From Mobula hypostoma (Eukaryota), in assembly GCF_963921235.1 (NCBI RefSeq), contig NC_086108.1, positions 35,590,001 to 35,654,000 on the forward strand: a DNA stretch of 64,000 nucleotides, written 5' to 3'. The notes below the pieces were generated by a model. The model saw only the letters and a program-made list of their open reading frames with translations, was not told where the DNA came from and did not search any database. Shown in pieces: positions 14,123 through 60,469 of the stretch; the stretch's first letter is position 1, and each line of letters begins with the position of its first letter. A program made the position numbers and the translations under genes.

Positions 14123-14158
14123 CAGTCGACGTTTCAGGCCGAGACCCTTCGTCAGGAC
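14123..14158 (-). ncRNA. Minimal type I hammerhead ribozyme motif (antisense arm)
   Basis: Exact reverse complement of 14173-14208. Confidence 0.8.
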
Positions 14159-14172
14159 ACTGACACACACAG

Positions 14173-14208
14173 GTCCTGACGAAGGGTCTCGGCCTGAAAC
14201 GTCGACTG
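14173..14208 (+). ncRNA. Minimal type I hammerhead ribozyme motif
   Basis: GTC-CTGACGA-AGG(GTCTCGG)CCT-GAAAC-GTC^GAC: CUGANGA core, helix II, GAAA, palindromic ACGU helix III and GUC cleavage triplet, as described for Penelope-like element hammerheads. Confidence 0.8.
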
Positions 14209-16469
14209 CGCCTCTTCCTATAGATGCTGCTTGGCCTGCTGCGTTCACCAGCAACTTTGATGTGTGTTGAAAAGAAAATTATAGACCTGTTAGCTTGACA
14301 TCGGTGGTTGGGAAGTTGTTGGAGTCGATTGTCAAGGATGAGGTTACAGAGTACCTGGAGGCATATGACAAGATAGGCAGAACTCAGCATGGATTCCTTA
14401 AAGGAAAATCCTGCCTGACAAACCTATTACAATTTTTTGAGGAAATTACCAGTAGGCTAGACAAGGGAGATGCAGTGGATGTTGTATATTTGGATTTTCA
14501 GAAGGCCTTTGACAAGGTGCCGCACATGAGGCTACTTAACAAAATAAGAGCCCATGGAATTACGGGAAAGTTACATACGTGGATAGAGCGCTGGCTGATT
14601 GGCAGGAAACAGAGAGTGGGAATAAATGGATCCTATTCTGGTTGGTTGCTGGTTACCAGTGGTGTTCCACAGAGGTCCGTGTTGGGGCCGCTTCTTTTTA
14701 CATTGTACATCAACGATTTGGATTATGGAATAGATGGCTTTGTGGCTATGTTTGCTGATGATACGAATATAGGTGGAGGGGCCGGTAGTGCTGAGGAAAC
14801 AGAGAGTCTGCAGAGAGTCTTGGATAGATTGGGAGAATGGGCAAAGAAGTGGCAAATGAAATACGATGTTGGAAAGTGTATGGTTATGCATTTTGGCAGA
14901 AGAAATTAATGGGCAGACTATTATTTAAATGGGGAGAGAATTCAAATTCCTGAGATACAACAGGACTTGGGAGTCCTCGTGCAGGATACCCTTAAAGTTA
15001 ACCTCCAGGTTGAGTCGGTGGTAAAGAAGGCGAATGCAATGTTGGCATTCTTTTCTAGAGGAATAGAGTATAGGAGCAGGGATGGGATATTGAGGCTCTA
15101 TAAGGCGTTGGTAAGACCTCACTTGGAGTACTGTGGGCAGTTTTGGGCTCCTTATTTAAGAAAGGATGTGCTGACATTGGAGAGGGTACAGAGAAGGTTC
15201 ACTGGAATGATTCCATGAATGAGAAGGTTAATATATGAGGAACGTTTGTCCGCTCTTGGACTGTATTCCTTGGAGTTTAGAAGAATGAGGGGGTCCTCAT
15301 AGAAACATTTCGAATGTTGAAAGGCATGGACAGAGTGGATGTGGCAAAGTTGTTTCCCATGATGGGGGAGTCTAGTACAAGAGGGAGTGACTTAAGGATT
15401 GAAGGGTGCCTATTCAGAACAGAAATGCAAAGAAATTTTTTTAGCCAGAGGGTGGTGAATCTATGGAATTTGTTGCCATGGGTAGCAGCGGAGGCCAAGT
15501 CATTGAGTGTATTTAAGGCAGAGATTGATAGGTATCTGAGTAGCCAGGGCACCAAAGGTTATGGTGAGAAGGCGGGGGAGTGGGACTAAATGGGAGAATG
15601 GATCAGCTAATGATAAAATGGTGGAGCAGACTCAATGGGCCGAAAGGCCAACTTCTGCTCCTTTGTCTTATGGTCTTATGGTCTAAGGCTGAAAGTCGAC
15701 TGTTCTTTTCAGTTGTGCAGGTGTTACACATACCACCCACCAGTCACTAATTCAAAGGTAGGAATGAGCACCAATGAAGCTTTTATCAGAATATCTTGAG
15801 CCAACTCTGGGAACCTAACGCACATCTCCCATTCTCTTTAATCCAGTATTGTCTTCAAAGTAAATAAACTACAGTAGTTTCCACGAAGCAATGAGAAAAA
15901 TCAAATTCAGAGAAACCATTAATAAGGCAGGAAGTTGTCAGTCAATTCTTCTAGTTAATTATATGATCAGTGGCCCGAAGGCACCATCCTGCTGCTTCAA
16001 CAGACTTTTGAAAGAAAGCATTGTTTGCAATATCAAGATGAAGAAATTCTCTGCAGATGTCTATACATTAACAACGTATAATGATTGCAATATACAATAT
16101 ATGCTCTAAGGACAAAGTGTCTGGACTGAGGTGACGTGAGGGCATCATAATCTGTCATCTCAACCTCAAAACCACAGAGGTGAGGAAATGCTAAGCATGC
16201 CATAGTTTGCGGCAGAAGACTACTTTTTCCATGAGGGAGGAAAGTAGTCAGCAATTGCTTTCTTAGTGAAGAAGTGACAATACTATATATAAACAAATAA
16301 AGTTAAAGCCAAAAATGTTAAAAAATACTGGAAATACTCAACATGTAAGGAAGCATCTGTGAAAGAGAACCATAGATAGCCTATCATAAACTTGGTTCAT
16401 GTGCAATGCTATCTACTTAAAGAGTTTGTAGAAAGATCAAGAGAATAAACTACAAGATGCTCTAAAAAA

Positions 16470-17290
16470 CATTTGAAGGCATTCTACAAATTCCCTCTCT
16501 TAGGATCCATCTACCACCTGATTTTCCCCTCTACCTGCATTTTGAAATCCCCCTTTACTATCATATCATTGCCTTTTTTACATGCCTTTTCAGCTTCCTG
16601 TGGTAATATGTAGCTCACATCTTTGTTACTGTTTGGAAGCCTGAATATAATTCACATCTGGGTCTTTTTACCCTTGCAGTTTCTTAATGCTACCCACAAG
16701 AATTCTACATCTTCCAATCCTATGTCACCTCTTTCTAAGGATTTAATTTCATTTTTTGCCAACAGAGCTGCCCCAACCCCTCTGCCAACCTGCCTCTCCA
16801 TTCGATACAATGTCTATCCTTGGATGTTAAGCTCCCAACTATGATCTTCTTTCAGCTACAACTCAGAGATGCCCACAAAGTCATAACTGCCAAAATCTAA
16901 CCATGCTACAAGATCATTTACTTTATTCCATATGCTGCGTGCATTCAAATATAACACTTTCCATCCTGTATTCATCACTCCTTTTTGATCTTGCCCTCAT
17001 GTTACACATCCCAATGACTGAAATTCTGCCCTACCATCTGCCTGTCCTTCCTCACGGCCTCACTGCACACTGCATCTAGTTGTATGCAAACTGCCTCATC
17101 CTCAGCCCTATCACTCTGGTTCCCACTCCCTTCCAAACACTCTGTAACACCTCTAGCAAACCCACCCACAAGGATTTTGGTGACCTTTGGGTTCAAGTGA
17201 AACCCGTCCTTTCTATACAGATCTGCCTATTCCCTTTCCCACTCCTGGCAGTTACCAGCTAGCTACCTCCTGCACTTTAGGTGTGACTAC
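16470..17290 (-). mobile_element. Decayed CR1 fragments (endonuclease region plus an ORF1 piece)
   Basis: The minus strand resembles the APE region at 23880-24070 and 27925-28400. Segment 17222-17290 is paralogous to ORF1 at 21176-21263. Confidence 0.7.
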
Positions 17291-17685
17291 CTTCCTGTAG
17301 CTCCTATTTTTTAATTCCGAAAAAGAAATCCCAATAATTCCTGTAATCTGAAACTCTGACCCCTGTACCAATTCTTCAGCCACCCATTCATCTGCCAAGT
17401 CATCTTATTCTTACCCTCACTGAAGTGAGGCACAAGCAGCAATCCAGAGATTTCTACCCTTGAGGCCTTGCTTTCCAGCTTTCTACCTAACTCCCTATAT
17501 TCTCTTTTCAAAGCCTCATCCCTTTACTACGTCTGTCATTGGGACCAATATGTACCACAACTTCCGGTTGTTCACCCTCCCCCTTTAGGGTGCTATGGAC
17601 CTGATCCGAGACCATAAGACGTAGGAACAGAATTAGGCCATTTGGAATATTGAGTCTGTTCATGGCTGATCCGTCTTTCCTCTCA

Positions 17686-18502
17686 AAGATTTCAAAGGTT
17701 TCAAAGGTGCATTTAATGTCAGAGAAAAATGTATACAATATATATCCTGAAATGCTTTTTCTTTGCAACCAAAAATGAAAACAGAGGAGTGCCCCAAAGA
17801 ATGAATGACAGTTAAATGTTTGAACCCTAAATCCCCCCTCAGCTCCCCCCTCCCACGTGTAAGCAGCAGTAAAGCAACAATCCCCCCTCCCCCACCAACA
17901 AAAAAAATCAGCACAACCCACCGAGCACTCAAGCGTGCAGCAAAGCATTAATAAAAACACAGACTTGCAGTACCCAAAGGTTACTCAATCACCCCATATT
18001 CAACATACCACAGGCTCTCTCTCTCCCTAATAAAGGAAAAAGGGGTGTCCCCATTTCGCAGCAAGAGGGGAGACATAACAAACAACTCGCTGACTTACTA
18101 TGTTAAAAGTCTGTTGCGATGCTTTTTTCGAGCTCTGTGCCCAAAGAACTTGGGTCTCTGGGCACACAGCCAGCAGCCAGCTTGCTAATTTTGATCTTCC
18201 ATCTCCCACGACACACCGTTTCCTGCAGATGCATCGACTACGAGTCTGCCTGCCTCTAGAGCCATGAAATCCCGGAACTCTGAGGGCAAGCTAGTCTTCT
18301 AAGCCGCGTCCTTGGTATAACAGAGAACGGCCAGCCGTGAAACCCTGAGAGCAGGTCCCATTCCCGCAAAGAACCGAAGTCAGCGTGTAACTCCAGGTCA
18401 GGGTCTTCAAAAGAACCCTGAAAGGGAAAAATGGAGATATTAAAGATAAAAATAGAGCTGTTTCCGAAGATGCAGGCAAAGGAGTCACCATTGTCTCCTT
18501 AG
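17686..18502 (-). mobile_element. Non-coding non-autonomous retroposon with (TTTGAAAC)n-like tail
   Basis: Interrupts a CR1 3'UTR; 6-bp TSD CTCTCA at 17680-17685 and 18503-18508; G-rich 3' body similar to 37381-38139. Confidence 0.75.
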
Positions 18503-19245
18503 CTCTCAGTCCCAATCTCCTGCTTTCTCCCTGTATTCCTTCATTCCCTGACCAATCCAGAATCTATCAACCTCTACCTTGAATATATATGAAGACTTGG
18601 TCACCACAGCCACCTGAGGCAATGAATTCCACAGATTCATCACTCTCTGGCTAACGAAATTCCCCCTCATCTCCTTTCTAAAAGGGCACTCCTCTGTTCT
18701 GAGACTGTGTCCTCTGGTCATAGCCTCTCCTACCATAGCAAAGATCCTCTCCACATCCACTCTATCAGGGCCTTTCACTACTCGATAGGTTTCAATGATG
18801 TCACCCCTCATTCTTCTGAATTCCAGTGAATACAGGACCAGAGCCATCAAACACTCTTCACATGACAAGATGTTCAATCCTGGAATAATTTTCGTGAATC
18901 TCCTTTGAACCCTGTCCAATGTCAGCACATCCTTTCTACAATAAAGGGTCACAAACTGCTCTCAATACTATGTGAGGCTTCACCAGTGCTTTATAAAGCC
19001 TCAACATTGCAACATCGCTTTTATATTCCAGTCCTCTTGAAATGAATGCTTTCCTCACCCTAGACTCAACCTGTAAATTAACCTTTAGGGAATCCTGCAC
19101 AAGGAATCCCAAGTCCCTTTGTGCCCCAAATTTCTGAATTTTCTCTCCATTTAGATAATAGTCTTGCCTTTTGTTTCTTCTACATAAGTGCATGACCATA
19201 CATTTCCTGACACTGTATTTCATCTGCCACTTCTTGGCCCATTCT

Positions 19246-19375
19246 CTGACGAAGGGTCTCGGCCTGAAACGTCGACTGCGCCTCTTCCTATAGATGCTGC
19301 TTGGCCTGCTGCGTTCACCAGCAACTTTGATGTATGTTGCTTGAATTTCCAGCATCTGCAGAATTCCTGTTGTTT
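19246..19375 (+). mobile_element. Penelope-like single-arm insertion starting at the hammerhead core
   Basis: Matches the reverse complement of the left arm of the 60254 copy. Starts at CTGACGA and ends with the tail ...GAATTCCTGTTGTTT. No TSD; ~12 bp of host CR1 are missing. Confidence 0.85.
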
Positions 19376-20343
19376 AAGTATTTCTATAGCCTCGCTACTT
19401 CTTCAAAACTACCTGCCCCTCCACTTATCTTCATATTGTCCGCAAACTTTGCAACAAAGCGTTCAATTTCATCATTCAAGTCATTGACACATAATGTGAA
19501 AAGAAGTGGTCTCAGCAGAGACCCCTGTGGAACACCACTGATAACTGGCAGCCAACCAGAAAAGGCTCCTTTTATTCCCATTCTTTGTCTCCTGCCAATC
19601 AGCCACTGCTTTATCAATAGGCTCTCAACTTGTTAAGTAGCCTTGTGTGTGACACCTTGCCAAAGGCCTTCTGAAAATCCAAGTACACAATATCATGCAG
19701 TTCTCTTTTGTCCATCCTGCTTGTTATTTCTTCAAAGAATTCCAATAGGTTTGTCAGGCAAGATTTTTCTCTTGAGGAAACTATGCTGACTACAGCCTAT
19801 TTCATCATGTGCCTTAAAGTACCCTGAGACCTCATCTTTAATAATAGACTCCAAGGTCTTCCCAAACACTGAAGTCAGACTAATTGACCTACAGTTTCCT
19901 TTCTTCTGCCTCTCTCCCTTCTTGATGAGTGGAGTGACATTTGCAATTTTCCAGTCTTCCTGAACCATTCCAGAATCTAGTGAACTTGAAAGATCAATAC
20001 TAATGCCTCCACAATCTCTTCAGCCACCTCTTTCAGAACCCTGGGTTGTATACCATCTGGACTCGGTGACCTACCTTCCTTCAGACCTTTCAGTTTCCTA
20101 AGAACCTACTCCCTATTAATGGCAGCTTCACACCCTTATGGCACCTGACACTCTGGAACTTCCACCATACTGCTAGTATCTTCCACAATGAAGATGGATG
20201 CAAAACATGTATTTAGTTTGTCCCCCATTACTTCTTCTCCAGCATCGTTTTCCAGCAGTCTGATTTCCCCTCTCACCTCTCTTTTACACTTTATGTAGCT
20301 AAAGACACTTTCAGTATCCTCTTTAGTATTATTGGCTACCTTA

Positions 20344-20674
20344 CGAGGGGTGATTGATAAGTTCGTGGCCTTAGTTAGAATGAGATGAGTTGTACAGCTC
20401 TCATTACATGCACACGCAGTTTACCTCTTTGAGTGAAAATTCAGGAAGTTTGAAGTTAATAACTCATCTCCTTCTACTTTAGGCCATGAACTTACTAGTC
20501 ATCCCTGCCGTGGACCGCTTTCTGGAGGTCCAAGACGTCAACTTCTACAAAGAAGGGATTCGTATGCTCCAGGACCACTGGTCTAAGTGTGTAAATGTAG
20601 GAAAAATAAATGTGCTAGGTTTTCTAAAATTGACACCTTCTACCTTAGGCCACGAACTTATCAATCACCCCTCG
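20344..20674 (+). mobile_element. Non-autonomous mariner element with TA TSD
   Basis: TIRs CGAGGGGTGATTGATAAGTTCGTGGCC; TA on both sides; residual transposase C-terminus FYKEGIRMLQDHWSKCVNVG; extra internal TIR copy at ~20461-20506. Confidence 0.92.
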
Positions 20675-21612
20675 TACTTTTGTATTCCATCTTTTCCTTA
20701 ATGATTTTTTAGTTGCCTTCTGTTGGTTTTTGAAAGCTACCCAATCTTCTAACTTCCCACTAATTTCTGCTCTATTATATGCCCTCTCTTTGGCTTTTAT
20801 GTTGGCTTTGGCTTCTCGTTAGCCATGGTTGTGTCATCTTGTCTTTGGAATATTTCTTCCTGTTTGGGATGTGTATATCCTGTTCCTTCTGAATTGCTTC
20901 CAGACACATCCTGACCCTGGCACCTGGGAGGCAACATAACATCTGAGGGTCGCTTCCGCATCCACAGAATCGGCTTTCTGCCTCTCTAGTATGGAATCAC
21001 CCATCACTACTGCACTCCTCTTCTTCCCACTTCCCCGCTGAGCCACAGTGCCAAACGCAGTGCCAGGGAGCCACTTGCTGAGGCTTCGCCCTGTTATTTC
21101 TCCCCACCTTCCAACAGTATCAAAAGCAGTATACTTATTATTGAGGGGAATGGCCACAGGGTTAGTCTACACTGGCTGCTTATTCCCCTTCCCTCTCCTG
21201 GCTGTCACTCAATTACCTGCTTCCTGCAATGTAGGGGTAACTACCTCCCTGTAGCTTCTATCTATCACCTCCTCATTTTGTTCATGAGCTGAATGTCCAT
21301 CGAGCTGCCACTCCAGTTCCTTAACACTGTCTCTATGGAGCTGCAGCTTGATGCACTTTGTACAGAAGTAGTTACCAGGGAGACTGGAGCTCTCCCAAAG
21401 TTCCCACATCTCACACAAAGAACATGCCACTAACTCTAAATCCATTCTCGATACTCTAGCTATACACTAATACACAAAGAAGGAGAATAAAAAATCTCCT
21501 GGGAAACTTAGAGCCTCCACCTGTTCTTATCAAAACTTGTTGAGCTAAGCCTTCTACTCTAACCCTGGCCCACTCACCCCAATGGCTGCTCTGCATATAC
21601 CTTGTTCCTTTT

Positions 21613-22218
21613 TGTAACACTCAGGGCTAACGGCTCGTGGTTGTCTAGGGGAAACCCCGTCTGCCCACCAAACCGTGTCTCATGTTTGCGTAGTTGCCGT
21701 GTAATGCACCCTGGTACAAACTCACACATCAAATATCAGACAGCACACAATGTACGATTTACAAATTACACTTTATAAATCTTGCTGGAACTATGTAATT
21801 AATAGAGATAAAATATAAAAGGAAGTAAAACGCGCCAAACTTATCAGAGTTCAACCACTTCATGCATAACTGTTGGAGCTCAGTTAACGGGGTCTTCTTT
21901 CCACCATTCGATCTGCTCCGACCTCCTCGACCCACCGCCTGGGACCAACCACGGTGTTCGACCAGAGCACATCCAGCATGTCCTTCCTCTTCAGTTCTCC
22001 TCCCGAAAAAAACCCGCGCACTGACCCAGGTTCCCACACAGAATAACATAGCTTCCATTGGTTAGTTCCTCTGTTTTCTATAACTATAACCCAAACATTT
22101 CAGCTATAGAGAACCTTACCTCATAGTTAATATTACGAAGAAGCCATTTCATTATTACACTTCAGAGAAGCCATTTTATAATTAGCAGTTAACAATTAAC
22201 ATTACTGAGAACCCTACA
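21613..22218 (-). mobile_element. Solo LTR (Gypsy-like), 606 bp
   Basis: TGTA...TACA termini; 4-bp TSD TTTT; inserted in a CR1 5' region. Confidence 0.8.
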
Positions 22219-23579: not shown

Positions 23580-23710
23580 AGCGGTCAATCATCTCACATT
23601 TGCCCATTATTACTGTGTAACTTGGCAGCTACCTACAGCAAATTCATTTACACTTCAAGAGTGCATTTTGAGATGTAAAGTGCCAGGATTTCCTGTGGAT
23701 GTGAAGGTTG
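23580..23710 (+). mobile_element. Highly decayed Deu-domain SINE (SacSINE1/AmnSINE1-like) 3' part
   Basis: TTGGCAGCTACCTACA...TACACTTCAAGAG...TGTAAAGTG...GTGAAGG resembles the recalled Deu-SINE 3' consensus. Confidence 0.4.
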
Positions 23711-27194: not shown

Positions 27195-30100
27195 TTTTGG
27201 ATACTGTTGATGGGGACGACCTACCAGGGACAAGTTGCAGTGGTTGCGTCTCTGGCACTGAGACTGGACCCTCAGCTCAGAAGGGAAGGAGGGAAAAGAG
27301 GAGAGCAGTAGTGATAGGGGATTCGATAGTTAAGGGGACAAATAAGAGGTTCTGTGGAAGAGATTGAGAATCCCGGATGGTCTGTTGCCTCCCTGGTGCC
27401 AAGGTCCGCGATATCTCGGATCGAGTTCTCAGTATTCACAAGAGGGAGGGTGAGCAGCCAGATGTCATGGTCCATGTAGGGACCAATGACGTGGGTAGGA
27501 AGAGTGAGGAGGTCCTGAAAAGTGAGTTTAGGGAGTTAGGCACCAAGTTAAAGGACAGGACCTCCAGGATAGCAATCTCAGGATTGCTACCAGTACCACA
27601 TGCAGGCGGGTTTAGAAATAGTAAGATAGCGTAGATCAACACGTGGCTGAAAACATGGTGCAGGAGGGAGGGCTCCAGATTTATAGATAATTGGGCAGTT
27701 TTCCAGGGAAGGTGGGACCTGTTCCAGAGGAACGGTTTACATCTGAACTGCAGGGGGACAAACATCCTTGCAGGTAGGTTTGCTAGAGAGGCTCCGGTGG
27801 ATTTAAACTAGATACAAGGGGGGAGGGGAACCAGAGTGTAGAAACAGATGTAGAGGAGAAGGAAGAAAAAGAAGATAGTAAAGTTGTTTGCACCGTTCGT
27901 GATAAACAGAGAGTAAGAGGTAGAAAATTTATTAAATGCATTTATTTTAATGCTAGGAGCATTGTAAGAAAGGTGGATGAGCTCAGAGCATGGTCTAACA
28001 CCTGGAAGTATGATGTTGTAGCTATTAGGTCAAACATGGTTGCAGGAGGGGTGTGATTGGCAACTAAATATTCCTGGATTTGGGTGTGATAGAATCGGAG
28101 GGACAAGAGGGGGAAGTGTTGCCAGAGAAAATATTACATCGGTGCTCTGGCAGGATAGATTAGAGGGCTCGTCTAGGGAGACTATTTGGGTGGAATTGTG
28201 GAATGGGAAAGGTGTAGTAACACTTATAGGGGTGTATTATAGACCACCTAATGGGGAACAGGAATTGGAGGAGCAAATTTGTAAGGACATAGCAGATATT
28301 TGTAGTAAGCACAAGGTTGTGATTGTGGGAGATTTTAATTTTCCACACATAGACAGGAAGCCCATACCATAAAAGGGCTGGATGGTTTGGAGTTTGTAAA
28401 ATGTGTGCAGGATAGTTATTGGCAGAAATACATAGAGGTACCAACTAGAGAAGGAGCAGTGTTGGATCTCCTGTTAGGGAATGAGATAGGTCAGGTGACG
28501 GAGGTATGTGTTGGGGAGCACTTCAGGTCCAGTGATCACAACGCCATTAGTTTCAATGTAATTATGGAGAAAGATAGGTCTGGACCCAGGGTTGAGATTT
28601 TTGATTAGAGAAAGGCTAAGTTTAAGGAGATGCGAAAGGATTTAGAAGGAGTGGATTGGGACAATTTGTTTTATGGGAAGGATGTAATAGAGAAATGGAG
28701 GTCATTTAAAGGTGAAATTTTGAGGGTACAGAATCTTTATGTTCCTGTTAGGTTGAAAGGAAAGGTTAAGAGTTTCAGAGAGCCATGGTTTTCAAGGGAT
28801 ATTGGAAACTTGGTTCAGAAAAAGAGAGATACCTACAATAAATATAGGTAGCATGGAGTAAATGAGGTGCTCGAGGAATATAAAGAATGTAAAAAGAATC
28901 TCAAGAAAGAAATTAGAAAAGCTAAAAGAAGATACGAGGTTGCTTTGGCAAGTAAGGTGAAAATAAATCCAAAGGGTTTCTACAGTTATATTAATAGCAA
29001 AAGGATAGTGAGGGATAAAACTGATCCCTTAGAGAATCAGAGTGGACAGCTATGTGTGGAGTCAAAAGAGATGGGGAAGATTTTGAACAATTTCTTTTCT
29101 TCGGTGTTCACTAAGGAGAAGGATATTGAATTGTGTAAGGTAAGGGAAACAGGTAGGGAAGTTATGTAAACTATGATGATTAAAGAAGAGACAGAAATAT
29201 TTCAAATGTCATTAGAAACCGGGATGGTACCGGAGGATTGGCGTATTGCTCATGTTGTTCCATTGTTTAAAAAGGGTTCTAAGAGTAAACCTAGCAATTA
29301 TTGGCCTGTAAGTTTGACGTCAGTGGTGGGTAAATTAATGGAATGTATCCTTAGAGATGGTATATATAATTATCTGGATAGACAGGGTCTGATTAGGAAC
29401 AGTCAATATGGATTTGTGTGTGGAAGGTCATGTTTGACAAATCTTATTGAATTTTTTGAAGAGGTTACTCAGAAAGTTGACGAGGGTAAAGCGGTGGATG
29501 TTGTCTATATGTCTATAAGGCCTTTGACAAGGTTCCACACTGAAGGTTAGTTAGGAAGGTTCAATCATTAGGTATTAATATTGAAGTCATAAAATGGTTT
29601 CAACAGTGCCTGGATGGGAGACACCAGAGAGCAGTGGTGGATAACTGTTTGTCAGGTTGGATGCCGGTAACTAGTGGTGTGCCTCAGGGATCTGTACTGG
29701 GTCCAATGTTGTCTTTCATATACATTAATGATCTGGATGATGGGGTGGTAAATTGGATGAGTAAGTATGTAGATGATACGAAGATAGGTGGAGTTGTGGA
29801 TAATGAAGTACTTTATACTTTATTGTTGCCAAACAAGTGATACCAAAACATACGATCATCACAGTGATATTTGATTCTGTGCTTCCCACTCCCTAGATTA
29901 CAAGTAGGTTTTCAAAGCTTGCAGAGAGATTTAGGCCAGTTAAAAGAGTGGGCTGAAAGATGGTAGATGGAGTTTAATGCTGATAAGTGTGAGGTGCTAC
30001 ATTTTGGTAGGACTAAACGAAATAAGACATACGTGGTAAATGGTAGGGCATTGAAGAATGCAGTAGAACAGAGTGATCTAGGAATAATGGTGCATAGTTC

Positions 30101-32855: not shown

Positions 32856-33329
32856 AAAGAATATGGACTATGCCATAATGAAATACAAAAGGTGCGATAT
32901 GAGTATCCAAGTCATGGATGAGGATATACCAACTTCAGTAAATAATATGACAAGCAAACTTGGTAAACAGATGAAGGAAATAAAATTGTCTGGGATCTAT
33001 TCACCATTTGGCTGGAATCATATCTAGTGCAAAGGAAAGTAATTGTGGTTGCTAGAGAGAAATTACATCAGCACCAGGGGGTCTTCAGTGTCCTCAGTAC
33101 TCCTAATCTGCTGGGTCAGTGCCACTCCTTCCTTGGATTTGCACAAGCACCAGTTTTCCCTGTACCTGCTGGACTGTTGACTGTTGGGAACTTTGGCACA
33201 AATGCTTTGTAAGTTTGCGCAGATGGTTCTTGACCCATTGAGTTCTTCCAGCATTCTGCTCATGTTCTGCACAGGTTTATGTTCCGATTTCACTTTAAAA
33301 AATAATAGAGCCATTTCAACAGTTTATAT

Positions 33330-41760: not shown

Positions 41761-42452
41761 ATCCTTTCCAGATTTATCATGGCTTGGTATGGCAAATGCT
41801 CTGCCTGTCACTGCAAGAAACTGCAAAGAATTGTTGATGCAGCTCGGCATGTTACAGAAACCAGCCTCGTCTCCATGGAATCTACCGATAGTTCTCACCG
41901 CCTTGGTAAAGCAGACAACATAATTAAAAACACCACCTGCCCCAGACACTCACAATTCTCCCATTCCCTACCCCGTTTGGGCAGAAGATACAAAAGCCTG
42001 AAAGTACGAATGTACCACCAGCCCCAAGGATAGCTTCTACCCTGCTGGTATAAGACCATTGAACAGACCACTTGTATGATAACATGAACTCTTGACCTCG
42101 CAATCTACATCATCGTGGTTTTGCATCTTATTGTCCACCTGCCTTGCACTTGCTCTGTAATTGTAACACAATATCGTGCATTCTGTCACTGCTTCTCCCT
42201 TGTACTACCTCGATGCACAGATGTGATGAAATGATCCATACGGATGGATCAGTATCTGTGATGACAAAAAGTAAATTTCACGTACTAATTTGTCCTTTCG
42301 GGGTTGGAGTCACGGATGATAAAGTGAACATTTTAATAACTGTGTGTTGATTGGGATGTGATATCACTACTTAGTGAAGTTGGGGGAGGGTAATATATCC
42401 ATTAGAACAGTGACAAGGGAGGTAAGGAGAGAGAAGGAGTTGCTTTCCCAGA

Positions 42453-43040
42453 AAAACAAACACAAAATGCTGGAGGAACACAGCAGCTCAAGCAGCAACT
42501 ATGGAGAGGAATAAACAGTCGATGTTTCGAGTCTATACCCTTCATTAACATTGGAAAGGAAGAGGGAATAAGGTGGGGAGGGGAGGGAAAGGAGTAGAAG
42601 CTGATCGATGAAGCCAGGTGAGGGGGAAGGTAGGTGGGTGAGGCGGATGAAGTGAGAAACTGAGAGGTGATAGGTGGAAGAGGTAAAGGGCTGAAGAAGA
42701 AATCTGATAGGAAAAGAGAATGGACGTCAAGAGAACAGAAGGGTGTCCCTTTAGAACAGAGTTGTGGAATTCATTGCCATAGACGGCTGTGGAGCAGAGG
42801 TTGATAGGTTCTTGATTAGTAAGGGTGTCAAAAGTTATTGGGAGATGGAAGAAGAATAGGGTTAAGATAATAAATAAGCCACTATCGAATGACAGAGCAC
42901 ATTCGATTGGCTAAATGGCCCATCTGCTCCTATGTTCTCTGGTCTTATGGAAAGGAGGAGGGGCACTGAAGGGAGGTGTTAGGCAGGTGAGGAGAAGTGA
43001 AGTGATAAGAGAGTGGCCAATTACCAGAATTTAGAGAAAG
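42453..43040 (-). mobile_element. Older Penelope-like 3' region with decayed hammerhead, split by a CR1 tail (~42735-42950)
   Basis: ACAAAATGCTGGAGGAAC...CAGTCGATGTTTCG...ACCCTTCATT is homologous to the young copies; pyrimidine-rich 3'UTR on the minus strand. Confidence 0.7.
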
Positions 43041-43235
43041 TGCCATCAAGTTGGACTCTTCCCCAGAATGTTTCTCACATAGAAGAAATGCATTGGGGAA
43101 GGTTTGCATAGACACAGGAGGTAGAAAGGATGAGAAAAGATGGGGAACTTCTCTCAGTTCACTGGCCAATATTTATATTTCCACTAGTAGCATAAAAACA
43201 AGTTACACCTGAAAATTTTGCATTGAATTTTATTC

Positions 43236-43400
43236 CACACAAAATGCTAGAGGAACTCAGCAGGCCAGGTAGCATCTAGGAAAAGAATACAGTCAACATT
43301 TCGGACCAAAACCCTTCAGCAGAGCTTGTCCTGATGAGTTCCTCCAGCATTTTGTGTGTGTTGCTCAGATTTCCAGACTCTGCAGATTTTCTCTTGTTTC
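43236..43400. mobile_element. Older Penelope-like inverted mini-insertion
   Basis: CACACAAAATGCTAGAGGAACTCA pairs with TGAGTTCCTCCAGCATTTTGTGTG; tail on the right arm only. Confidence 0.8.
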
Positions 43401-49459: not shown

Positions 49460-49511
49460 ATATGTCCTATATCTTTCACTGAGATTACAACTCATTCTTC
49501 AAGATTATATA

Positions 49512-49870
49512 CATTCAGTGGCCACTTCCTGAGGTACCTCCTTTACCTAATAAAGTGGCCTCTAAGTGTATGTTTGTGGTCTTCGGTTGCTGTATGCCAT
49601 GCACATCAAGGTTCGATGGGTTATGCATTCAGAGATGCTCTTCTGCACACCACTGTTGTAAAACGTGTCTTTTTGAGTTACTGTTGCCTTCCTGTCAACT
49701 TGAAACAGTATGGTCATCTTCCTCTGACTTCTCTCATTAACAAGCATTTTTGCCCACAGAACTGCCACTCGCTGCATTTTATTTTGTTTTTCACACATTT
49801 CTTTGTAAACTTTAGAGTTTTGTGCTTGAAAATTCCAAAAGATCTGCAGTTTTTGAGATACTTAAACCTA
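49512..49870 (-). mobile_element. Truncated Tc1-like non-autonomous element
   Basis: 57-bp terminal palindrome 49512-49568 flanked by TA; transposase remnant DRKATVTQ..GVQKSISEC; homologous to 59591-60161. Confidence 0.8.
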
Positions 49871-49879
49871 CTCTCCCAC

Positions 49880-52125: not shown

Positions 52126-52289
52126 TGGATGTATATATAGATATAAAGGCATGCTTAATTAAACATCTAATCCATGTTGGTTAGTAGATTTCAATATAGC
52201 TATTGTTTCAGACCACAGCCTCTGTCAGATGACATTAGCCTGCCTCAAAGGGACACTAGCGAGGGATAACGCCAGAACAGCAATGGCTG

Positions 52290-54380
52290 GAATTCCTGGG
52301 AGAAATTCAAAAAACACAGGATAGATAAATCCCAAAGAGGTACTATTCTAAAGGAAGGATGACGCAACCGTGGCCAACCAAGGGAGTCAGGAGCAACGTA
52401 AAAGCAAAAGAGGGGGCGTATAAAGAGCAAAAATTAGTGGGAAGTTAGAGGATTGGGAAGCTTCTAAAAAAACAACAGAAGACAACTAAAAAAAAAACAT
52501 AAAGGAGGAAGAGATGAAATATGAAAATAAGCTAGCCAATACTATAAAAGAGGATACCAAAAGATTTTTCAGTTATGTAAAGAGTAAAAGAGAGGTGAGA
52601 GACTGCTGGAACATGACTCTGGAGAAGTAGTAATGGGGTACGAGGAAATGGCAGATGAACTCAAGTATTTTTCATCCCTCTTCTTTAAGGAAAAAGGCAG
52701 CAGTGTGCCAGAAATTTGAGAGTGTCAGGGAGCAGAGTAAGTGCAATTACAATTACTAGGGAAAAGGTGCTTGGGAAGCTGAAAGGCCATAAAATAGATA
52801 AGTCACCTGGACCAGATGGACTACACCTCAGGGTTCTGCAAGAGGTAGCTGAAGTGATTGTAGAGGCATTAGTAATGATCTTTCAAGAGTCACTAGATTC
52901 TGGAATGGTTCCTAAGGACTGGAAAATTACAAATGTCACTTTACTCTTTAAGAATGAGGGGAGGCAGAAGAAAGGAAATTAGAGGCTAGTTCGTCTGCTC
53001 TCAGTGGTTGAGAAGATGTTGGAGATGATTGTTAAGGATGAGGTCTCAGGATACTTGGAGGCATCTAATAAAATAGGCCAACGTCAGCATGATTTCCTGT
53101 AAGGGAAAGTATTGCTTGACAAACTGTTGGATTTCTTTGAAGAAATATCAAGCAGAATAGATGACAGAAAATTGGAGGACGTTGTGTAGTTGGATTTTCA
53201 GAAGGCATTTGACAAGGTGCCACACACGAGGCTGCTTAACAAGATGAAGAGCCCACAATATTACAGAAAAGATAGTCGCATGGATAGTGCATTGGCCGAT
53301 TGGCAGGAAGCCAAGAGTGGGAATAAAAGGAGCCTTTTCTGGTTGGCTGCTGGTGACTAGTGATGCTCTACAGGAGGTTGTGTTGGGACTGCTTTTTTTC
53401 ATTACATGTCAATAACTTGGATTATGGATTTGATGGTTTTTGGCCAAGTTTGCAGAAAATACTGTACAAGGATTGATGGAGGAGGAGGTAGTTTTGAAGA
53501 GGTAGACATGCTACAGAAGGACTTAAACAGATCAGGAGAATGGGCAGATGGAATACAATGTTGGGAGGTCTATGGTCATGCACTTTGGTAGAAGAATAAA
53601 AGGGGTAGACTGTTTTCTTAATGGAGAGAAAATTCAAAAATCTGAGGTGCAAAGGGACTTGGTAGTCCTCATGCAGGATTCCCTGAAGGTTAAATTGCAG
53701 GTTGAGTTGGTGGTGAGGAAGGCAAATGTACTCTTAGCATTTATTTTGAGAGGACTAGAATATAAAAGTAAGGATGTAATACTGGAGCTTTGTAAGGCAC
53801 TGGTGAGGCATGACTTGGAGTACTGTGAGTAGTTTTGAGACCCCTTATCTAAGAAGGAATGTGCTGACATTGGAGAAGGTTCAGCGGAAGTTCACAAATA
53901 TGATTCTGGGAATAAACATGTTATGATATAAAGTGTGTCTGATGGCTCTGAGCCTGCGCTTGCTGGGATTTAGAGGAATGGCGGGGGGATTTCATTGAAA
54001 CCTATCAAATGTTGAAAGGCCTTGAATGAACGGATGTGGAGAGGATGTTTCCTACAGTGGGGGAATCTAGGACTGGAGGGCATCGGCTCAGATTAGAGGG
54101 ATGCCCATTTAGAATGGAGATGAAGAGGAATCTCTATAGCCAGGAGGTGGTGAATCTGTTGAATTCATTGCCACACATAGCTGTGAAGACCAGGTCATTG
54201 GGTTTATTTAAGGCGGAAGCTGATAGGTTCTTGATTAGTCAGGGCGTGAAAGGTTACAGGGAGAAAGCAGGAGAATGGGATTGAAAGGGAAAATTGATCA
54301 GCCTTGATGAAATGGCGGAGCAGACTCAATGGACTGATTAGCCTAATTCTGCTGTATCTCTTATGATCTTATGGTTTTAT
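52290..54380 (+). mobile_element. Decayed CR1 LINE (RT)
   Basis: KSPGPDGLHLRVLQE, QDSLKVKLQVE, VVNLLNSLP; TCTTATG-type tail. Confidence 0.93.
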
Positions 54381-55224
54381 GAGGATTAGGCTGTCAACAA
54401 GGGCAGGTTTCAAACTTCTTTTACACACTATTATCTGGAAGGCAGAGGATGGTGGAAATAGATTTCATTACTGATCCTTGAAAGTGAAATATATAGATAT
54501 GCAAAAAGAAATGAGACAGTTCTGTCCACAGCATGGGCTGTAGCTTTGTCACTCTACACCCGTACCTTCATGAGTTCTACAGCTGCCATGACGTCGAGCT
54601 CTTCTGCAGTCACCTCCGTCTGCAGACCTTGCTTAAATTGCTTAAGGGGAATCACAGCAACTTAGATGTTCTGGGTGGCCTCAGGTAAGTGAATAAAGTT
54701 GCCTTGCACCAATAAGGGGATTATGAATGAGAGCGATGGTAAATCAAAGCTGAAAGACGCAGTGGAGGTGACTTTAGAGAATGGTGGGGGGGGTGGGTGG
54801 AAAGTTGAATACAGAAGAGCAGCCGTTCTTTTCAAACAGGTTTAGTGTGACTGCAAGGCAGTGAATGCCCCAGTGATGAATAGGGTGGACTTTGAGCTAA
54901 ATCTTCCTGGACTCGGCCCAGCACTTGGACTCATCACCTGTGATCCCTACAAAAACACAGTGACTAGGAGAGGATGTAGAGAGCTAATACAACTAACCCT
55001 CGAGTCAGATTGCCCCACCCCCAAGGTACGGGGGAGAAGCAGTCAGACCTCTGATACCCCAAATAGCCTTTGAAAGTTGGGATTGGAGCTTTCTCTCCTG
55101 TCAGATTTCTGAGTGATCTTAACACTTTACCAATACCTCCGACATTCAAAAGTAGATAATCATCTTAATTACTTTTTAGAAATATAAGGTGGTGTAAAAA
55201 TTGATGTAGTAGTTCCTTGAGGTT

Positions 55225-55545
55225 GTTATACCTGGGGATTGTAGAGGGGGTACGCTACCACTTCCTAGTAAATGCTCCCACCGGCATGCATCTCAAATGG
55301 CCTCTGGCAACCAAGTCCAGCTCCTAGCCTTCAACTTTGACGGGCAACTCCTGATATGCCACTGGTGCCAAACTGTATCAGTCTCTGCTGTTCCTTTGGA
55401 TTCGACAGCTGCATAGAAAGGGGGAACCTGCTGCATGGGCTACAGCCTGCACTCCATATCATACTGCCCCGGCTTGCATGCTGGCTTGCGTGTCACGTAG
55501 ACAGAATGCAACATCCATGGTCAACTCCAACCAACGGAGGGTCTC
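55225..55545 (+). mobile_element. Internally deleted copy of the RTE-derived element
   Basis: Matches both ends of 57335-57890; lacks the middle. Confidence 0.7.
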
Positions 55546-55749
55546 AAATTAACATAGTGTAAGAAATAGTTAACTTAAAATTCATTAAAAGTAATTAAAT
55601 CATCAAGTTATAAAACATAATTAAAATGATATCTTTATTCCCTTTACCTACCAATCCACCTACCAAGAAACATCTTTGTTAATGTTGTCATGGATACTAT
55701 GTCAAGTTTCCCTGGGTAAGGGAAAATCACTACAAAGTCCAGATGCACG

Positions 55750-55990
55750 CAAATTAAAATAAAATATAAAATTCTGCAAATATTTAACAGGTCAAACAAC
55801 ATTTGTGTCAGGAGACATAAGAGAAACGGGGTTGTTTCAGGTTAAAACCTCTTCAACATCCCCCTCCACACAAGCTAGTTTTGTCCCCTTTCCAGTTCTG
55901 AAGAGTCTTTGACCTGAATCATTAGCTCTGTTTCTTTTCCCACAGATGTGGCCCGACTTCCTGAGTATGTCCTGCCGTTTCAGTTTTTGA
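55750..55990. mobile_element. Ancient Penelope-like inverted remnant
   Basis: TTCAGGTTAAAACCTCTTCA pairs with TGAAGAGTCTTTGACCTGAA; outer arms weakly complementary. Confidence 0.55.
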
Positions 55991-56764
55991 ATTAGTTTTC
56001 CCCAGGGTAATGCCGGGGAATGCCAGCATGACTGGGTCCCGACGTTGGATCTCATGAAAAATTCAGCAACGGATCATGGTGAGAGATGTGGTGCCATTTG
56101 TCATTTAGTCAGTCCTGGTGTCATGATGGAAGCGCCCAGGACCATGCTTTATTTACCTCTGTGGGTGATGTCCCCATTTCCTTTTGGAACTACTGACCAG
56201 AGGCAACAAGATTTAACCCATTGTGTTTGGAGGCCAGATAAACCAAATATAAGGAGAACTTCACTGATCTGGCAGGCAGCTGAAGCAACGTAATTGTTAT
56301 CCACCTTACATAGTAAAAAGATATAATGGAGGCGTGACACTAGCAGACAGGGAACTAAATGGAATGTGTATGGCAGACAAAGAATGAAATGGAACGTAAC
56401 CTGATTGCTTATTTTGTTGCTGTGCCTGCCCTAAAGAATTTCAGTTCATAAAGATAACCATGCTACACGGCATGAACATTTAGTTCTTGAAACTCACTCA
56501 AAAATCCCAGGTGTTTAATGCATGTTAGATTTGCTGATGTAATGTGAGAATCCTACTCACTCTTCTGTGTAGTAATGCCCTTTGATTTATGATAACACCC
56601 ACATCAACAGACAGCAGAGTGGAATGTGGGAACTGGAGGAGGCCACTTCTGGAGGCTTGTTCTGCTACTTAATTAAATCATGATTGGCCGGTATTTTAAT
56701 TGCCTGTTTTAGTCCATAAAGTTTGACAAATATAATTCAATCCAATTTAATTCTTAAATTTTTA

Positions 56765-57215
56765 ATTGGTCTATCCTGGGCCAAACACGTTGATGCAATC
56801 ATGAAGCAGTTACATCAGTGGCTATACTTCATTGGGAGCTTAAGGAGATTTGGTATTTCACCAATTACTCCAGCAAATTTCCTCAGATGTACAGTGGAGA
56901 GTATTCTGAGTGGTTGCATCACTGTCCAGTATTGAAGTTTCAGTGCACAGGATCAAAAGAGGGTGCAGAGGGTTGTAGACACAGACAGCTCCATCATGAG
57001 GATATCTTCTCCCTACGCTGGAAGACGCCTTCAAAAAGGACTCTCGCCATCCAGGATGAGCCCTCTTCTCATTACCCCATCAGGGAGAAGGAAAAGGAGC
57101 TAGATTGTAACTTATTGTAATGTCTATGTCTCGTTCTGTAGTGATGCGGCCAAACAAAAATCTTCATGAATTACGTCAGTGATGATAAGCCTATTTCTAA
57201 ATCAGATTCTGAACA
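56765..57215 (+). mobile_element. Rex1/Babar-like fragment
   Basis: LSWAKHVDAIMKQLHQWLYFIGSLRRFG..RCTVESILSGCITV. Confidence 0.8.
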
Positions 57216-57334
57216 TGACTTCTTTCCTCAGGCACTCTTGTGTGTCAGGCAAAGAGAAATGCCGGAGCCAAGTTCTCCATATTCATGAAGCACACCTGTA
57301 TTTACAGTGTACAAACTGTGGTTCCTTAAGGCTA

Positions 57335-57890
57335 TTATAGCTGGGGGTGGTAATGGAGATAGGTCCCACTACCTATTAAATGCTCCCAAAGGCATGCACC
57401 TCAAATAGCCTCTGACAGCCAAGTCCAGCTCCTGGTCTTCACATGTGGCCTAGCTATCATTTCTACTGACAGAAGAAAGGGCAAAGGCAGGTTACTGATG
57501 CCTTCAAACCAGTCACCGAGCAGCTGGGGCTTGTCAGCCGTGTTTGGCAGCTCATCTAGGAGAAGGAAAACTCTGATCTCAAACCTCCACTTCCTTGTGG
57601 CTACACCCATTCATGGGGAAGGTCTTGGGAGTAAGTCCCAAAGGTAAAATCCAGAGCTGGAGCCCCTAATGCAGTCCCACATTGAGTTCAACACTGACTG
57701 GCAACTCCTGCGATGCTGCTGGTACCAAACTGCATTGGGCTCGGCCATTCTTTTGGGTTCATCAAATGCGTGGAGAAGAGGAGCTTGCTACTTGGGTAAT
57801 AGCTTGCTCTCTATATCGTACTGCCCAGGCTTACATATCTAGACAACTAAGACACAACATCCATGGTTGACCCTGACTGACAGAGGCCTC
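57335..57890 (+). mobile_element. RTE-derived bipartite non-autonomous element (most complete copy)
   Basis: 5' hairpin; GGCAGCTCATCTAGGAGAAGGAAAACTCTGATC; 3' CATCCATGGTTGACC...GAGGCCTC. Confidence 0.7.
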
Positions 57891-58384
57891 ACTCACAAAC
57901 CGTGGATGACTTCTTCATTACGTATTCACCAGGCATGCAGCTGAATTTCTACGCCATAACTCGAAGGAATTCCGACCCTTCCAATCCATGTACTTATCCA
58001 AATTTCTTTTCAATGATTAACTCAAACCTGCATCCTTCATTTCCACTGGCAGCATGTTCCTCATTGCTCCGCTCTCCGAGAAAAATGAGGTTCCCCCTCA
58101 GGTTTCCTTCCACCACTAACCTATAGGTCTAGTCTCACCCAAACTCAGTGGAAGAAACCTGCTTGTAGTTACCCTATCTCTCACCATCATGAAGGGACAG
58201 GCTGGAGTTCAGTATACCATAACAATGAAAAGAAACTATGCTCTTTGTCAATGAAGTGCAGGAGTGATGCATCAACTGGGATTACAAAGGGAGTCTGTGC
58301 CAAGTGAGCAGACAGTAGGATATTGCCAGACAACATTACACATACCTGTCTTACTGTTCCATTGATGGACCAGTCACAGGTGGT

Positions 58385-59530
58385 GAATCAGCTTACCTGA
58401 GTGAGTAGGACATCTGGTTGTGTTGTTCTGCAACAAAACCTCTTACTCAGCATCAGTAAACTGAAGGTTGGTGACTCCAGGAAGAGAAATAAAGACAAAC
58501 ATGCACCAGTCTACATTGGCGGGTCAGTAGCGGAGTGAACCAGCAGCTTCGAATTCCTGGCCTTTAGCATATAGACTTGTCATGCACACAGCTCATTGAT
58601 GCAGTCATAAGGAAAGCACAGTGTCTTGAACTTCTCAGGAGTCATAGAGCACTACAACACAGAAACAGGCCCTTCAGCCCATCTAATCTGTGTCAAATTG
58701 TTATTCTTGCCTAGTCCAATTGACCCGCTTTTGGGAACTAGTCCCCTCTCCATACCCCTTCCATCCATGCACTTATCTGAATTCTTAAATGTTGCAATCG
58801 AACACACATCCACCACTTCTGCTGGCATCCTGTTCCACACTTGCGCCACCCGCTGCATGAATAACTTCTGTCTCAGGTTCCCTTAAATATTTCACCTTTT
58901 ACTCATAGCCTATGATCTCTAGTTGTAGTGGCTAAAGAGGTTCAATTTGTTATCAAACATTCTGACAAGCCTACAGAAGTCCTGTTGAAAGTTCCTTGAC
59001 TGATTGCATCATGGTCTGCTGCAGCAATGTGAATGAGCAGGAGTGTGAGAAGTGCACAGAGTGGCGGATTCTGCCCAATACACACAGGCACATCGACCCT
59101 CCCCCACCATTGGTTGTATCTACCGAAGGAAATGCCTCAAGAAGGCAATATCAATTCAAAGATCACCACGTCACCTTTTGACAGCTACCACCGGACAGGA
59201 TATGCAGAAGCCTGAATTTCCACATCATCATGTTCAAGCACAACAACTTCCCTTCAAGCAGTTGGTTCTCGAACCAACCAGCAAAACTCTAATTACTACA
59301 GTTTAGCAAAACTATAACCATTTTGATCACTTTGAACTAAAATGAACCTTTTTTGTTCCAATTATGTTCTTTCTAGTAAAAATTATATATAACTTATGCT
59401 CAATTTATGTTTTTGTGACTGCTGCTTACATAATGCTATGTAACTGTGACGTTGCTGCAAATACGTTTTTCATTGCCCCTGTGCGTTCATGTACTTGTGC
59501 ATATGACAACAAACTCCACTTCAACTTCTA
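58385..59530 (+). mobile_element. Old Rex1/Babar-like LINE with nested antisense CR1 tail (~58640-58928)
   Basis: LTDCIMVCCSN; nested QRVAQVWNRMPAEVV on the minus strand. Confidence 0.7.
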
Positions 59531-59590
59531 GTTTTCTTTTACGGCCTGTCATTCTTCGCTGTTGTCAATACCAAGTTACATTTCACCACA

Positions 59591-60161
59591 CACTCAGTGG
59601 CCATTTTATTAGGTACACCCCTGCACCTGCTCAGTAATCCAAGTATCTAATCAGCCAATCATGTGGCAGCAATTTCATGCATAAAAGCATGCAGACATGG
59701 ACAAGAGGTTCAGTTGTTGTTCAGACCAAACATCAGAGCGAGGAAGAAATGTGATCTAAGTGACTCTGACCGTGGAATATTTGCTGGTGCCAGATGGGAT
59801 GGTTTGAGTAGCTCAGTAACTGCTGATCTCTTGTTCCCCACACCCCCCCCCACACAGGACAGTCTCTAGAGCTTACAGAGAATGGTGTAAAAAACAAAAA
59901 AAAAATCCAGTGAGCGGTAGTTCTGTGAGCGAAAGTGCCTTCTTAATGAGCAAGGTCAGAGGCCAGACTGGTCCAAGATGTTCGGAAAGTGACAGTAAGT
60001 CAGATAGCCACATGTTACAACAGTGGTGTGCGGAAGAACATCTCTGGATGCACAACACGTGGAACCTTCAAGTGGATGGGTGAAAGCGGCAGAAGACAAC
60101 GGATGTGCACTCAGTGGCCACTTTATTGGGTATCTCCTGTGCCAAATAAAGCGGCCACATG
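59591..60161 (+). mobile_element. Tc1-like non-autonomous element
   Basis: TIR CACTCAGTGGCCA(C/T)TTTATT at 59591, again at 60108 and inverted at ~60145-60161; N-terminal transposase remnant KKCDLSDSDRGIFAGAR...TADLL. Confidence 0.85.
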
Positions 60162-60253
60162 TAAATCTCAGTGTTAGGGAAGGTTGAACCTACCGAACTC
60201 AAAAGACAGAACAGAATGCTGCCACTGGGCAAAACCAGCATCTTGACACAAGT

Positions 60254-60469
60254 AACAGGAATTCTGCAGATGCTGGAAATTCAAGCAACATACATCAAAG
60301 TTGCTGGTGAACGCAGCAGGCCAAGCAGCATCTATAGGAAGAGGCGCAGTCGACGTTTCAGGCCGAGACCCTTCGTCAGGACAAAGGGTCTCGGCCTGAA
60401 ACGTCGACTGCGCCTCTTCCTATAGATGCTGCTTGGCCTGCTGCGTTCACCAGCAACTTTGATGTATGT
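60254..60469. mobile_element. Penelope-like mini-insertion: perfect 86-bp inverted repeat plus one-sided tail, 14-bp TSD
   Basis: Arms 60288-60373 and 60384-60469; 34-nt extension on the left only; TSD ATCTTGACACAAGT at 60240-60253 and 60470-60483. Confidence 0.88.
60347..60382 (-). ncRNA. Minimal type I hammerhead ribozyme motif
   Basis: Minus strand reads GTCCTGACGAAGGGTCTCGGCCTGAAACGTCGACTG. Confidence 0.8.

Follow-up and report, generated by a model that had tools for sequence, protein, structure and literature searches.

Penelope-like arms in the window

The stretch analyzed in this study (the window) comprises 64,000 nucleotides (nt) of the Mobula hypostoma contig NC_086108.1 (forward strand, positions 35,590,001 to 35,654,000 of assembly GCF_963921235.1) and carries short copies, here called arms, of a Penelope-like element (PLE) with a minimal hammerhead ribozyme motif. 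Analysis of these arms and of contigs from public sequencing runs revealed a positional bias in the 5' starts of the arms at the upstream edge of the hammerhead. The bias, in a known kind of element and resting on three young insertion events and eleven junctions, is probably real. Positions in the element are counted on its sense strand, with the C of CTGACGA as 0 (window 14155, 14176, 19246 and 60379) and negative numbers upstream.

A total of eight arms, five young and three old, were collected by BLAST and a profile search. A ninth match (33221-33258, E 6.6) was dropped from the tally; this match and another at 16322-16369 resemble the middle of an old arm very faintly and are too weak to place a start. 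The five young arms differ at only four positions and are 97-100% alike, the 19-kb arm and the 60-kb left arm being identical over 126 nt. The old arms are 71-78% alike.

Two young arms stand head to head at 14 kb. The left arm (14021..14158, minus strand, 138 nt) starts at -3 and has a long 3' end at +134, and the right arm (14173..14269, plus strand, 97 nt) starts at -3 and has a short 3' end at +93; a 14-nt filler (14159..14172) separates the two arms. The pair is enclosed by a 14-bp target-site duplication (TSD; 14007..14020 and 14270..14283, plus strand), the left copy of which lies in the reverse transcriptase (RT) reading frame of a long interspersed nuclear element (LINE), and contigs carry the empty-site letters at 14020. 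This insertion thus splits the LINE frame and duplicates 14 bp of it, and the frame resuming at 14271 matches RVT_1 with an E value of 2.7e-29. The second young pair lies at 60 kb, again within a 14-bp TSD (60240..60253 and 60470..60483, plus strand). Its left arm (60254..60382, minus strand, 129 nt) starts at -3, or at 0 when the GAC common to both arms is counted with the right one, and has a long 3' end at +125. Its right arm (60380..60469, plus strand, 90 nt) overlaps the left one by 3 nt, starts at +2 to +5, carries G>A at +5 and has a short 3' end at +91. The remaining young arm is single (19246..19375, plus strand; start 0 to +4, end +124 to +129) and lies in a LINE copy, so that two of the three young events fall inside LINE RT remnants (13690-14903 and 18939-19632). 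Since each young palindrome sits within one 14-bp TSD, the five young arms represent three insertion events. No adjoining TSD was found at 19 kb or 43 kb, and none of at least 6 nt at 43324-43399.

Among the old arms, one (43236..43322, minus strand) starts at about 0 and has a short 3' end, and its head-to-head partner (43324..43399, plus strand) starts at about +53 and has a long 3' end. The third old copy (42452..42725, minus strand) has a decayed core and extends at least 175 nt upstream of it. The latter two are counter-examples to a start at the hammerhead edge. A LINE-like fragment with several relatives in the window (42725-42950) interrupts the pyrimidine tract of the third copy, and a probable further upstream piece of that copy follows at 42950..43060 (minus strand). 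This piece may resemble the end of a PLE open reading frame (ORF); no Pfam match was found in three frames of 43019-43234, the putative ORF end.

Three features recur among the arms. An inverted, 5'-truncated partner copy is present in three head-to-head pairs (14, 43 and 60 kb), and each of the three pairs combines one long and one short 3' end. An optional tail of 30-40 bp thus occurs on one end (+134/+93 and +125/+91 in the young pairs). In addition, both arms of a young pair carry the same variant at +88 (G in the 14-kb arms, A in the 60-kb arms). Judged by its structure (inverted partner, tail, duplication and minimal hammerhead), the family appears to be a canonical endonuclease-bearing PLE, and no ORF for a telomerase-like RT with a GIY-YIG endonuclease was linked to the arms in the window, where no full-length copy was reached.

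The first 6 nt of the 14-kb filler close a 5-bp DNA hairpin with the arm end (-3.6 kcal/mol). The filler reads as a fold-back copy of the arm end followed by an AC repeat that resembles the letters at the short 3' start site, and it could record a snap-back and then a template jump. The filler was also considered as a spliced first exon or shared leader and rejected in that role: its depth is about 0.2% of that of the adjoining arm bin, with one orientation tested by depth and the other only through the loose-end consensus described below, and it occurs in no other young arm.

The hammerhead motif

Four intact motifs of the minimal hammerhead core were found in the window, against 0.01 expected in shuffles. 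The core of the 14-kb left arm, CTGACGA...GAAACGTC, occupies 14128..14155 on the minus strand, with the cut predicted after 14128. The core boxes CUGANGA and GAAA, the NUH site and the palindromic 15.2-16.2 positions are present in all four exact matches; the fifth young arm (60-kb right) lacks the first core bases. The motif also has an extra A, a 4-bp stem II and the palindromic ACGU, and its predicted cut falls after C+27. Helix I has 4-5 bp, with G-3 T-2 C-1 pairing with G+28 A+29 C+30 and A-4 pairing with T+31 (A-4 and T+31 from contigs). This organization agrees with that of the minimal type I hammerheads of metazoan PLEs (core CUGANGA...GAAACGUH, an extra base before stem II, palindromic ACGU and a short helix I; PMC4209133). 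Unlike in that account, the young arms read CCTGAAA (window 14136, 14195, 19265 and 60360), so that stem II closes with G-U and lacks the conserved G10.1-C11.1 pair. The letter before GAAA is C in the old arms and T in the young arms, and the young core CTGACGA carries no ATG. No Rfam hammerhead family matched up to E 1, as expected for a minimal form without loop 3.

The monomer fold of four young-arm sequences was no better than that of shuffles (z -0.62, 0.49, -0.38 and 1.23). Two copies of the region are predicted to pair at -27.5 kcal/mol, against 2 x -9.6 kcal/mol for the separate copies, and the predicted dimer is an extended duplex and not a hammerhead. Minimal hammerheads are thought to act as dimers (PMC4209133).

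Start positions of the arms

A preliminary description of this DNA had proposed that the arms begin at the 5' edge of the hammerhead. The GTCCTGACGA starts that it named are indeed present at 14158 (minus), 14173 (plus) and 60382 (minus), all at -3, and the old arm running from 43322 to 43236 does start at about 0. CTGACGA is found at 19246, but the exact start there is ambiguous between 0 and +4 because CTGA is already present at a paralogous empty LINE site (53.5 kb); the right end of this arm shares the microhomology TGTTT with the same site. The 60-kb right arm begins inside the core as described, and since GAC is common to both 60-kb arms the junction reads -3/+5 or 0/+2; it is not, however, the only exception, the old arms 43324-43399 and 42725 to 42452 having been overlooked. 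The starts lie near the edge and not exactly on it, as -3 is inside the 5' strand of helix I and the family has A at -4. All the starts named in that description are upstream of the predicted cut after C+27 (by 23-30 nt in the young arms) and are hence not the ends of cleavage products, as had been stated.

In all, six of the eight arms start in the edge zone, and four of five events have an arm there. The claim that random truncation would not cluster in this manner is borne out by simulation. The chance of all three young events falling in any one 8-nt window was 0.003 under a uniform null and 0.005 and 0.019 under two geometric ones, and for four of five events it was 0.0005-0.012 under the same three nulls, which were chosen by the authors. 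The 8-nt zone was picked after the data had been seen and two of the events are identical over 126 nt, and the clustering within the window is suggestive, not strong.

Junctions and loose ends in public sequencing runs

Contigs from four of 24 public runs (X2, X4, X8 and X16; organism labels A, B, C and A; X2 possibly stems from the same source as the window) were placed on a reference made of the 14-kb left arm and the filler, which leaves the family at 14158 (-3). The family is abundant in all four runs, with 30,894 (X2), 36,255 (X4), 9,202 (X8) and 4,812 (X16) contigs placed. Contigs cannot show RNA ends, and X16, which is presumed to be an RNA run, therefore gives no information on expression; depths are summed contig depths. 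Six pattern scans of metagenome, genome and viral contigs gave no further copies of the family.

At the 3' side, ends pile at +95, +96 and +98 (89-130 contigs each in X2 and X4) with long, A-rich unique flanks, and a small pile occurs at +134 in X16. The short 3' end class thus forms a major pile (+94 to +98), of about 100 contigs per position in X2 and X4. At the 5' side, the largest listed pile of loose ends lies at -3 (14158) in every run, with 181/1816, 201/1761, 137/534 and 54/425 of the partly placed contigs. The median loose length in this pile is 15-44, against 255 for the unique-flank piles. Its consensus opens with the same 15 letters in X2, X4 and X16, which read on the sense strand as a pyrimidine run, CAG, TTA and then G-3; the family therefore extends upstream of -3. 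The consensus agreement of 0.38-0.47 is near that of the unique flanks (0.37-0.44), which indicates that the pile is a mixture.

The junction list holds the best 12 of 33 joints, ranked by support, with the kind of joint (inverted or tandem) not printed. Among these 12, seven leave from -3 with 1-9 extra letters, three leave from +7, +38 and +67, and two are internal deletions. A separate listing adds an inverted joint, at +37/+4, beside five skips. Matching of the extra letters to the upstream consensus placed the seven starts at -4, -4, -7, -7 and -8 (X4) and at -4 and -4 (X8). The X8 pair is probably one locus, and an extra letter that is a single T could also be untemplated. Among the 11 listed joints with a 5' start, the binomial probability of such a concentration, against 9 of 119 positions, is 4e-6 for 7/11, 3e-5 for 6/10 and 1e-4 for 5/8.

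Six of the 12 listed joints have their departure point at -3 or +7 and their other side in the region of the predicted cut site (+27 to +33). This arrival zone is a possible second hot spot.

Sequence upstream of the boundary

Pyrimidines account for 68-92% of the old copy between -175 and -1, and for 32% at its core. Contigs of the young family show a pyrimidine run, CAG and TAG just upstream. Four features thus meet at one place: the 5' strand of helix I lies there, the pyrimidine tract ends there, and both AG words and initiator-like words are present. The AG words look like a 3' splice site, and two overlapping words with A at -8 and -4 may be regarded as initiator-like.

The pyrimidine tract upstream belongs to the family, which is therefore no fixed 135-nt element. 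A short non-autonomous element with fixed ends was accordingly rejected: the family runs on upstream and the starts spread from about -8 to +5. A non-LTR retrozyme (LTR, long terminal repeat) was rejected as well, on the finding of no head-to-tail units in the window, although some of the listed contig joints may be tandem.

A defined template end as a possible cause of the bias

The starts may cluster because the RNA has a defined 5' end, at about -8 to -3, from which an internally primed RT runs off, and we give this reading a probability of roughly 0.4. Run-off is favored by the sharpness of the boundary, by the -4 and -7/-8 starts beside initiator-like A's and by the dependence of synthesis on the RNA 5' end in vitro. 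The two 14-kb arms stop on the same base without microhomology, which points to a template limit. Their common start base and different 3' ends (+134 and +93) fit two separately primed complementary DNAs (cDNAs) with one template limit. The pairing of one long and one short 3' end seen again at 60 and 43 kb, the seven of 11 listed junctions that leave from -3 and a self-complementarity at -3..+4 no higher than elsewhere on the arm also speak for run-off. What survives of the earlier idea is a defined, template-side boundary at this spot.

The steps would be as follows. The copies would be 90-138-bp insertions of a Penelope-like terminal repeat, on which RT would be primed internally, 90-135 nt downstream of the boundary. 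By analogy with the Poseidon element of Anolis, the protein would nick and extend both target strands and use two internal start sites. Each arm would then be its own cDNA, and the 3' ends of the two cDNAs would be end-joined, leaving the filler at 14 kb and the 3-nt overlap at 60 kb. The RNA 5' end itself might be made by transcription start at the initiator-like words, with A at -8 and -4, or alternatively by 5'-to-3' trimming that is halted at the first helix or at a bound protein. Self-cleavage would play no role in this boundary.

The biochemistry of Anolis Poseidon agrees with several of these steps (PMC11167929). There, synthesis by RT is initiated within the RNA, at two positions downstream of the hammerhead, and both target strands are cut and extended. 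Ribozyme-dead RNA inserts normally, no reads were obtained at the cut site, and the protein is predicted to be a dimer. The template spanned the junction of the pseudo-LTR (pLTR) and the ORF, and 5'-shortened RNA gave a shorter product. In R2 elements, a 5' ribozyme fold aids templates, for which exonuclease resistance has been proposed (PMC11331408). In Drosophila virilis, 46 nt and a 75-nt intron separate the start site from helix I, which lies downstream of it (PMC2377424, PMC4209133).

A more specific version of run-off, which we consider rather doubtful, is a product like a strong stop. In it, RT would begin on the 5' copy of the terminal repeat and proceed as far as an RNA 5' end lying on the first helix of the hammerhead, and a protein dimer with hammerhead-paired RNAs would write two cDNAs into one break, giving the head-to-head palindromes.

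Several points weigh against run-off from a defined end. Two of the eight window arms start elsewhere (at about +53 and at least 175 nt upstream). The 14158 pile was rejected as proof of a 5' peak: the reference quits the family at that point and the pile therefore pools every copy running further upstream, and fewer than half of its contigs in X2 and X4 are long unique flanks. If the listed joints are inverted, the starts of their partner arms fall close to the cut (+27 to +33) and are uncounted in the tally. The variant shared within each pair would also fit fold-back copying or later conversion, and the monomer fold (z -0.62 to 1.23) appears too weak to stop an exonuclease unaided. Finally, the start site in D. 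virilis is not at helix I.

Alternative explanations

Besides run-off, one other explanation has the right polarity, namely a roadblock or fall-off as RT leaves the ribozyme for the pyrimidine tract and AG on a longer, unspliced RNA. The obstacle would be splicing factors or other pyrimidine-binding proteins on the RNA, or else the weakness of a hybrid between pyrimidine RNA and purine DNA, with hybrid stability and protein footprints taken as general background. The fall in pyrimidine share at the core of the old copy and the pyrimidine run, CAG and TAG of the young family lie where such an obstacle would be met; the direction fits, and longer copies exist. The D. virilis intron has its 3' end at the 5' border of helix I (PMC4209133), and the introns of PLEs survive transposition (PMC2377424, PMC8557442). 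On our analysis, the D. virilis precedent, in which helix I holds the acceptor and the start is about 120 nt further upstream, would favor a roadblock over run-off. However, both the intron and the bound protein remain hypothetical for this family, no common spliced leader was found among the young arms or in the loose-end consensus, and fall-off from a weak hybrid should smear deeper into the tract. Overall, a roadblock is a close rival of run-off but less probable.

The preliminary description had proposed that the ribozyme fold itself stalls RT, which in a modified form could involve an RNA dimer whose partner holds the 5' strand of helix I. The starts do coincide with that strand, and both the dimeric action suggested for minimal hammerheads (PMC4209133) and the predicted pairing energy of two copies speak for a partner. 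Nevertheless, this idea is not supported and, also with a dimer, is improbable; the monomer fold is no better than that of shuffles. RT reads RNA from 3' to 5', and a stem blocks it at the 3' foot of the stem, here at about +31. RT would therefore meet helix I at +31 first, and a stall by the fold has the wrong polarity; the cDNAs have instead copied the whole ribozyme. With about 4-5 bp, helix I is short, G-3 is part of three arms so that most of the strand was copied, and the predicted dimer does not take the hammerhead form.

Coincidence or selection in a small sample, with three related events and counter-examples dropped, is slightly less probable still. There are only three young events, two of them identical in sequence, two of eight arms start elsewhere, and the probability rises to 0.02 under the short-copy null; on the other side, the old arm and the junctions in X4 and X8 point to the same zone.

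It is very unlikely that the copies come from a non-autonomous master element, about 135-145 nt long, with the ribozyme at its start. The high identity of the young arms, including the 126 nt shared by the 19-kb and 60-kb left arms, would suit it, and non-autonomous PLE derivatives exist (PMC8557442; bioRxiv 10.64898/2026.07.22.740005). But the starts are spread over more than 10 nt, three runs share the 15 letters next upstream, an old arm of different sequence starts at the same place, and the unit forms no head-to-tail array in the window. The two 3' ends agree with the pair of internal sites at which RT starts in Anolis Poseidon (PMC11167929), and hence no RNA 3' end is implied; internal priming explains them. 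The non-autonomous RNA of about 135 nt that had been suggested is thus not needed, given the upstream extension, the variable starts (about -8 to +5) and the pair of sites for internal priming of RT.

Equally unlikely is a bias of end joining, in which cDNAs stop anywhere and junctions form at short self-complementary words (GTC/GAC, CTGA): the 3-nt overlap at 60 kb, the 4-nt target match at 19 kb, the hairpin in the 14-kb filler, the snap-back junctions of R2 (PMC11331408) and the 5' pLTR palindromes of rotifer PLEs (PMC3846280) agree with it, but among positions scored from -3 downstream self-complementarity averages 3.0 nt at -3..+4 against 3.6 nt elsewhere on the arm, 42 of 96 downstream positions equal or exceed the maximum of the zone, the strongest snap-back sites are +74/+75, +15 and +97, and a fold-back second arm would have no reason to end at the short 3' site of the family.

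Comparison with known systems

The family resembles Poseidon of Anolis carolinensis (PAc) in having a hammerhead near the 3' end of genomic copies, two classes of 3' end 30-40 nt apart (the 'tail'), AT-rich flanks at the 3' piles and, presumably, use of both target strands and a dispensable cleavage (PMC11167929). Unlike in PAc, where the ATG lies within the core, the young core has none, and no protein or ORF of the family was found here; the available text of that account is silent on the 5' breakpoints of genomic copies. Metazoan PLE hammerheads are mostly single, and some are paired on opposite strands (PMC4209133). The published pairs are about 100-700 bp apart, whereas those in the window stand head to head within 0-14 bp, and that account proposes cleavage and circles, whereas the starts found here are upstream of the cut.

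Heavy 5' truncation, an adjoining inverted truncated copy, a tail at one end, a TSD and microhomology junctions are shared with insertions of endonuclease-bearing PLEs (PMC8557442, PMC3846280, PMC8969392). Truncation is called frequent in the available text of these accounts, which mentions no preferred position. The duplications of rotifer PLEs are 8-10 bp, against 14 bp here. Non-LTR retrozymes are likewise short, non-coding, PLE-derived, dispersed as monomers and equipped with a type I hammerhead, but are defined by head-to-tail units, whereas the copies here are single or head to head (bioRxiv 10.64898/2026.07.22.740005). As with the 5' ribozyme of R2, which is like that of hepatitis delta virus, a fold at the template's 5' end bears on where the insertion starts; R2 RNA begins at the cleavage site, whereas the boundary here is 30 nt upstream of it (PMC11331408).

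Inverted truncated arms, tails, hammerhead pairs on opposite strands and microhomology junctions have therefore already been published (PMC8557442, PMC3846280, PMC4209133, PMC8969392). The literature searched, with subscription papers, Repbase and Dfam entries and supplements outside its scope, contained no account of 5' breakpoints peaking at the hammerhead, nor did a search of PMC12602865 turn up anything of relevance, and the 5' positional bias at the hammerhead edge is apparently undescribed.

Other features of the window

A long satellite of short G/A-rich units occupies window positions 1 to about 12700, with 503 copies of a 42-nt reference. The palindrome at 60343-60414 scores to the Rfam family mir-3926 below threshold, which its perfect hairpin explains. 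A 196-nt repeat whose ends form hairpins is present in two inverted copies, at 49507-49713 and 59963-60166; the hairpin ends score weakly to mir-9256, and the repeat may be a small DNA-transposon relic. A 335-bp piece at 20342-20676 has 39-bp terminal inverted repeats that are 95% matched and an inner third copy, and resembles a miniature inverted-repeat transposable element. Decayed frames at 17314-17984, 20837-21166 and 27368-27631 presumably correspond to the esterase-type first ORF of CR1-like LINEs.

Significance of the start bias

The window itself contributes three young events only, the rest of the insertion features being published. The PLE hammerhead is a poor cleaver that insertion in vitro does not require and that some successful clades lack (PMC4209133, PMC11167929, PMC8557442). 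If the strong-stop version of run-off is true, the ribozyme would be an RNA end marker and a clasp for the dimer and not a cutter, and genomic breakpoints would map the RNA start. If the bias is true, the breakpoint peak at the upstream edge of the ribozyme would be a fossil read-out of the germ-line RNA template, and comparative work could then show at little cost which of the three, start site, splice acceptor or fold, sets the boundary. The filling of a genome with short perfect palindromes would be explained as well.

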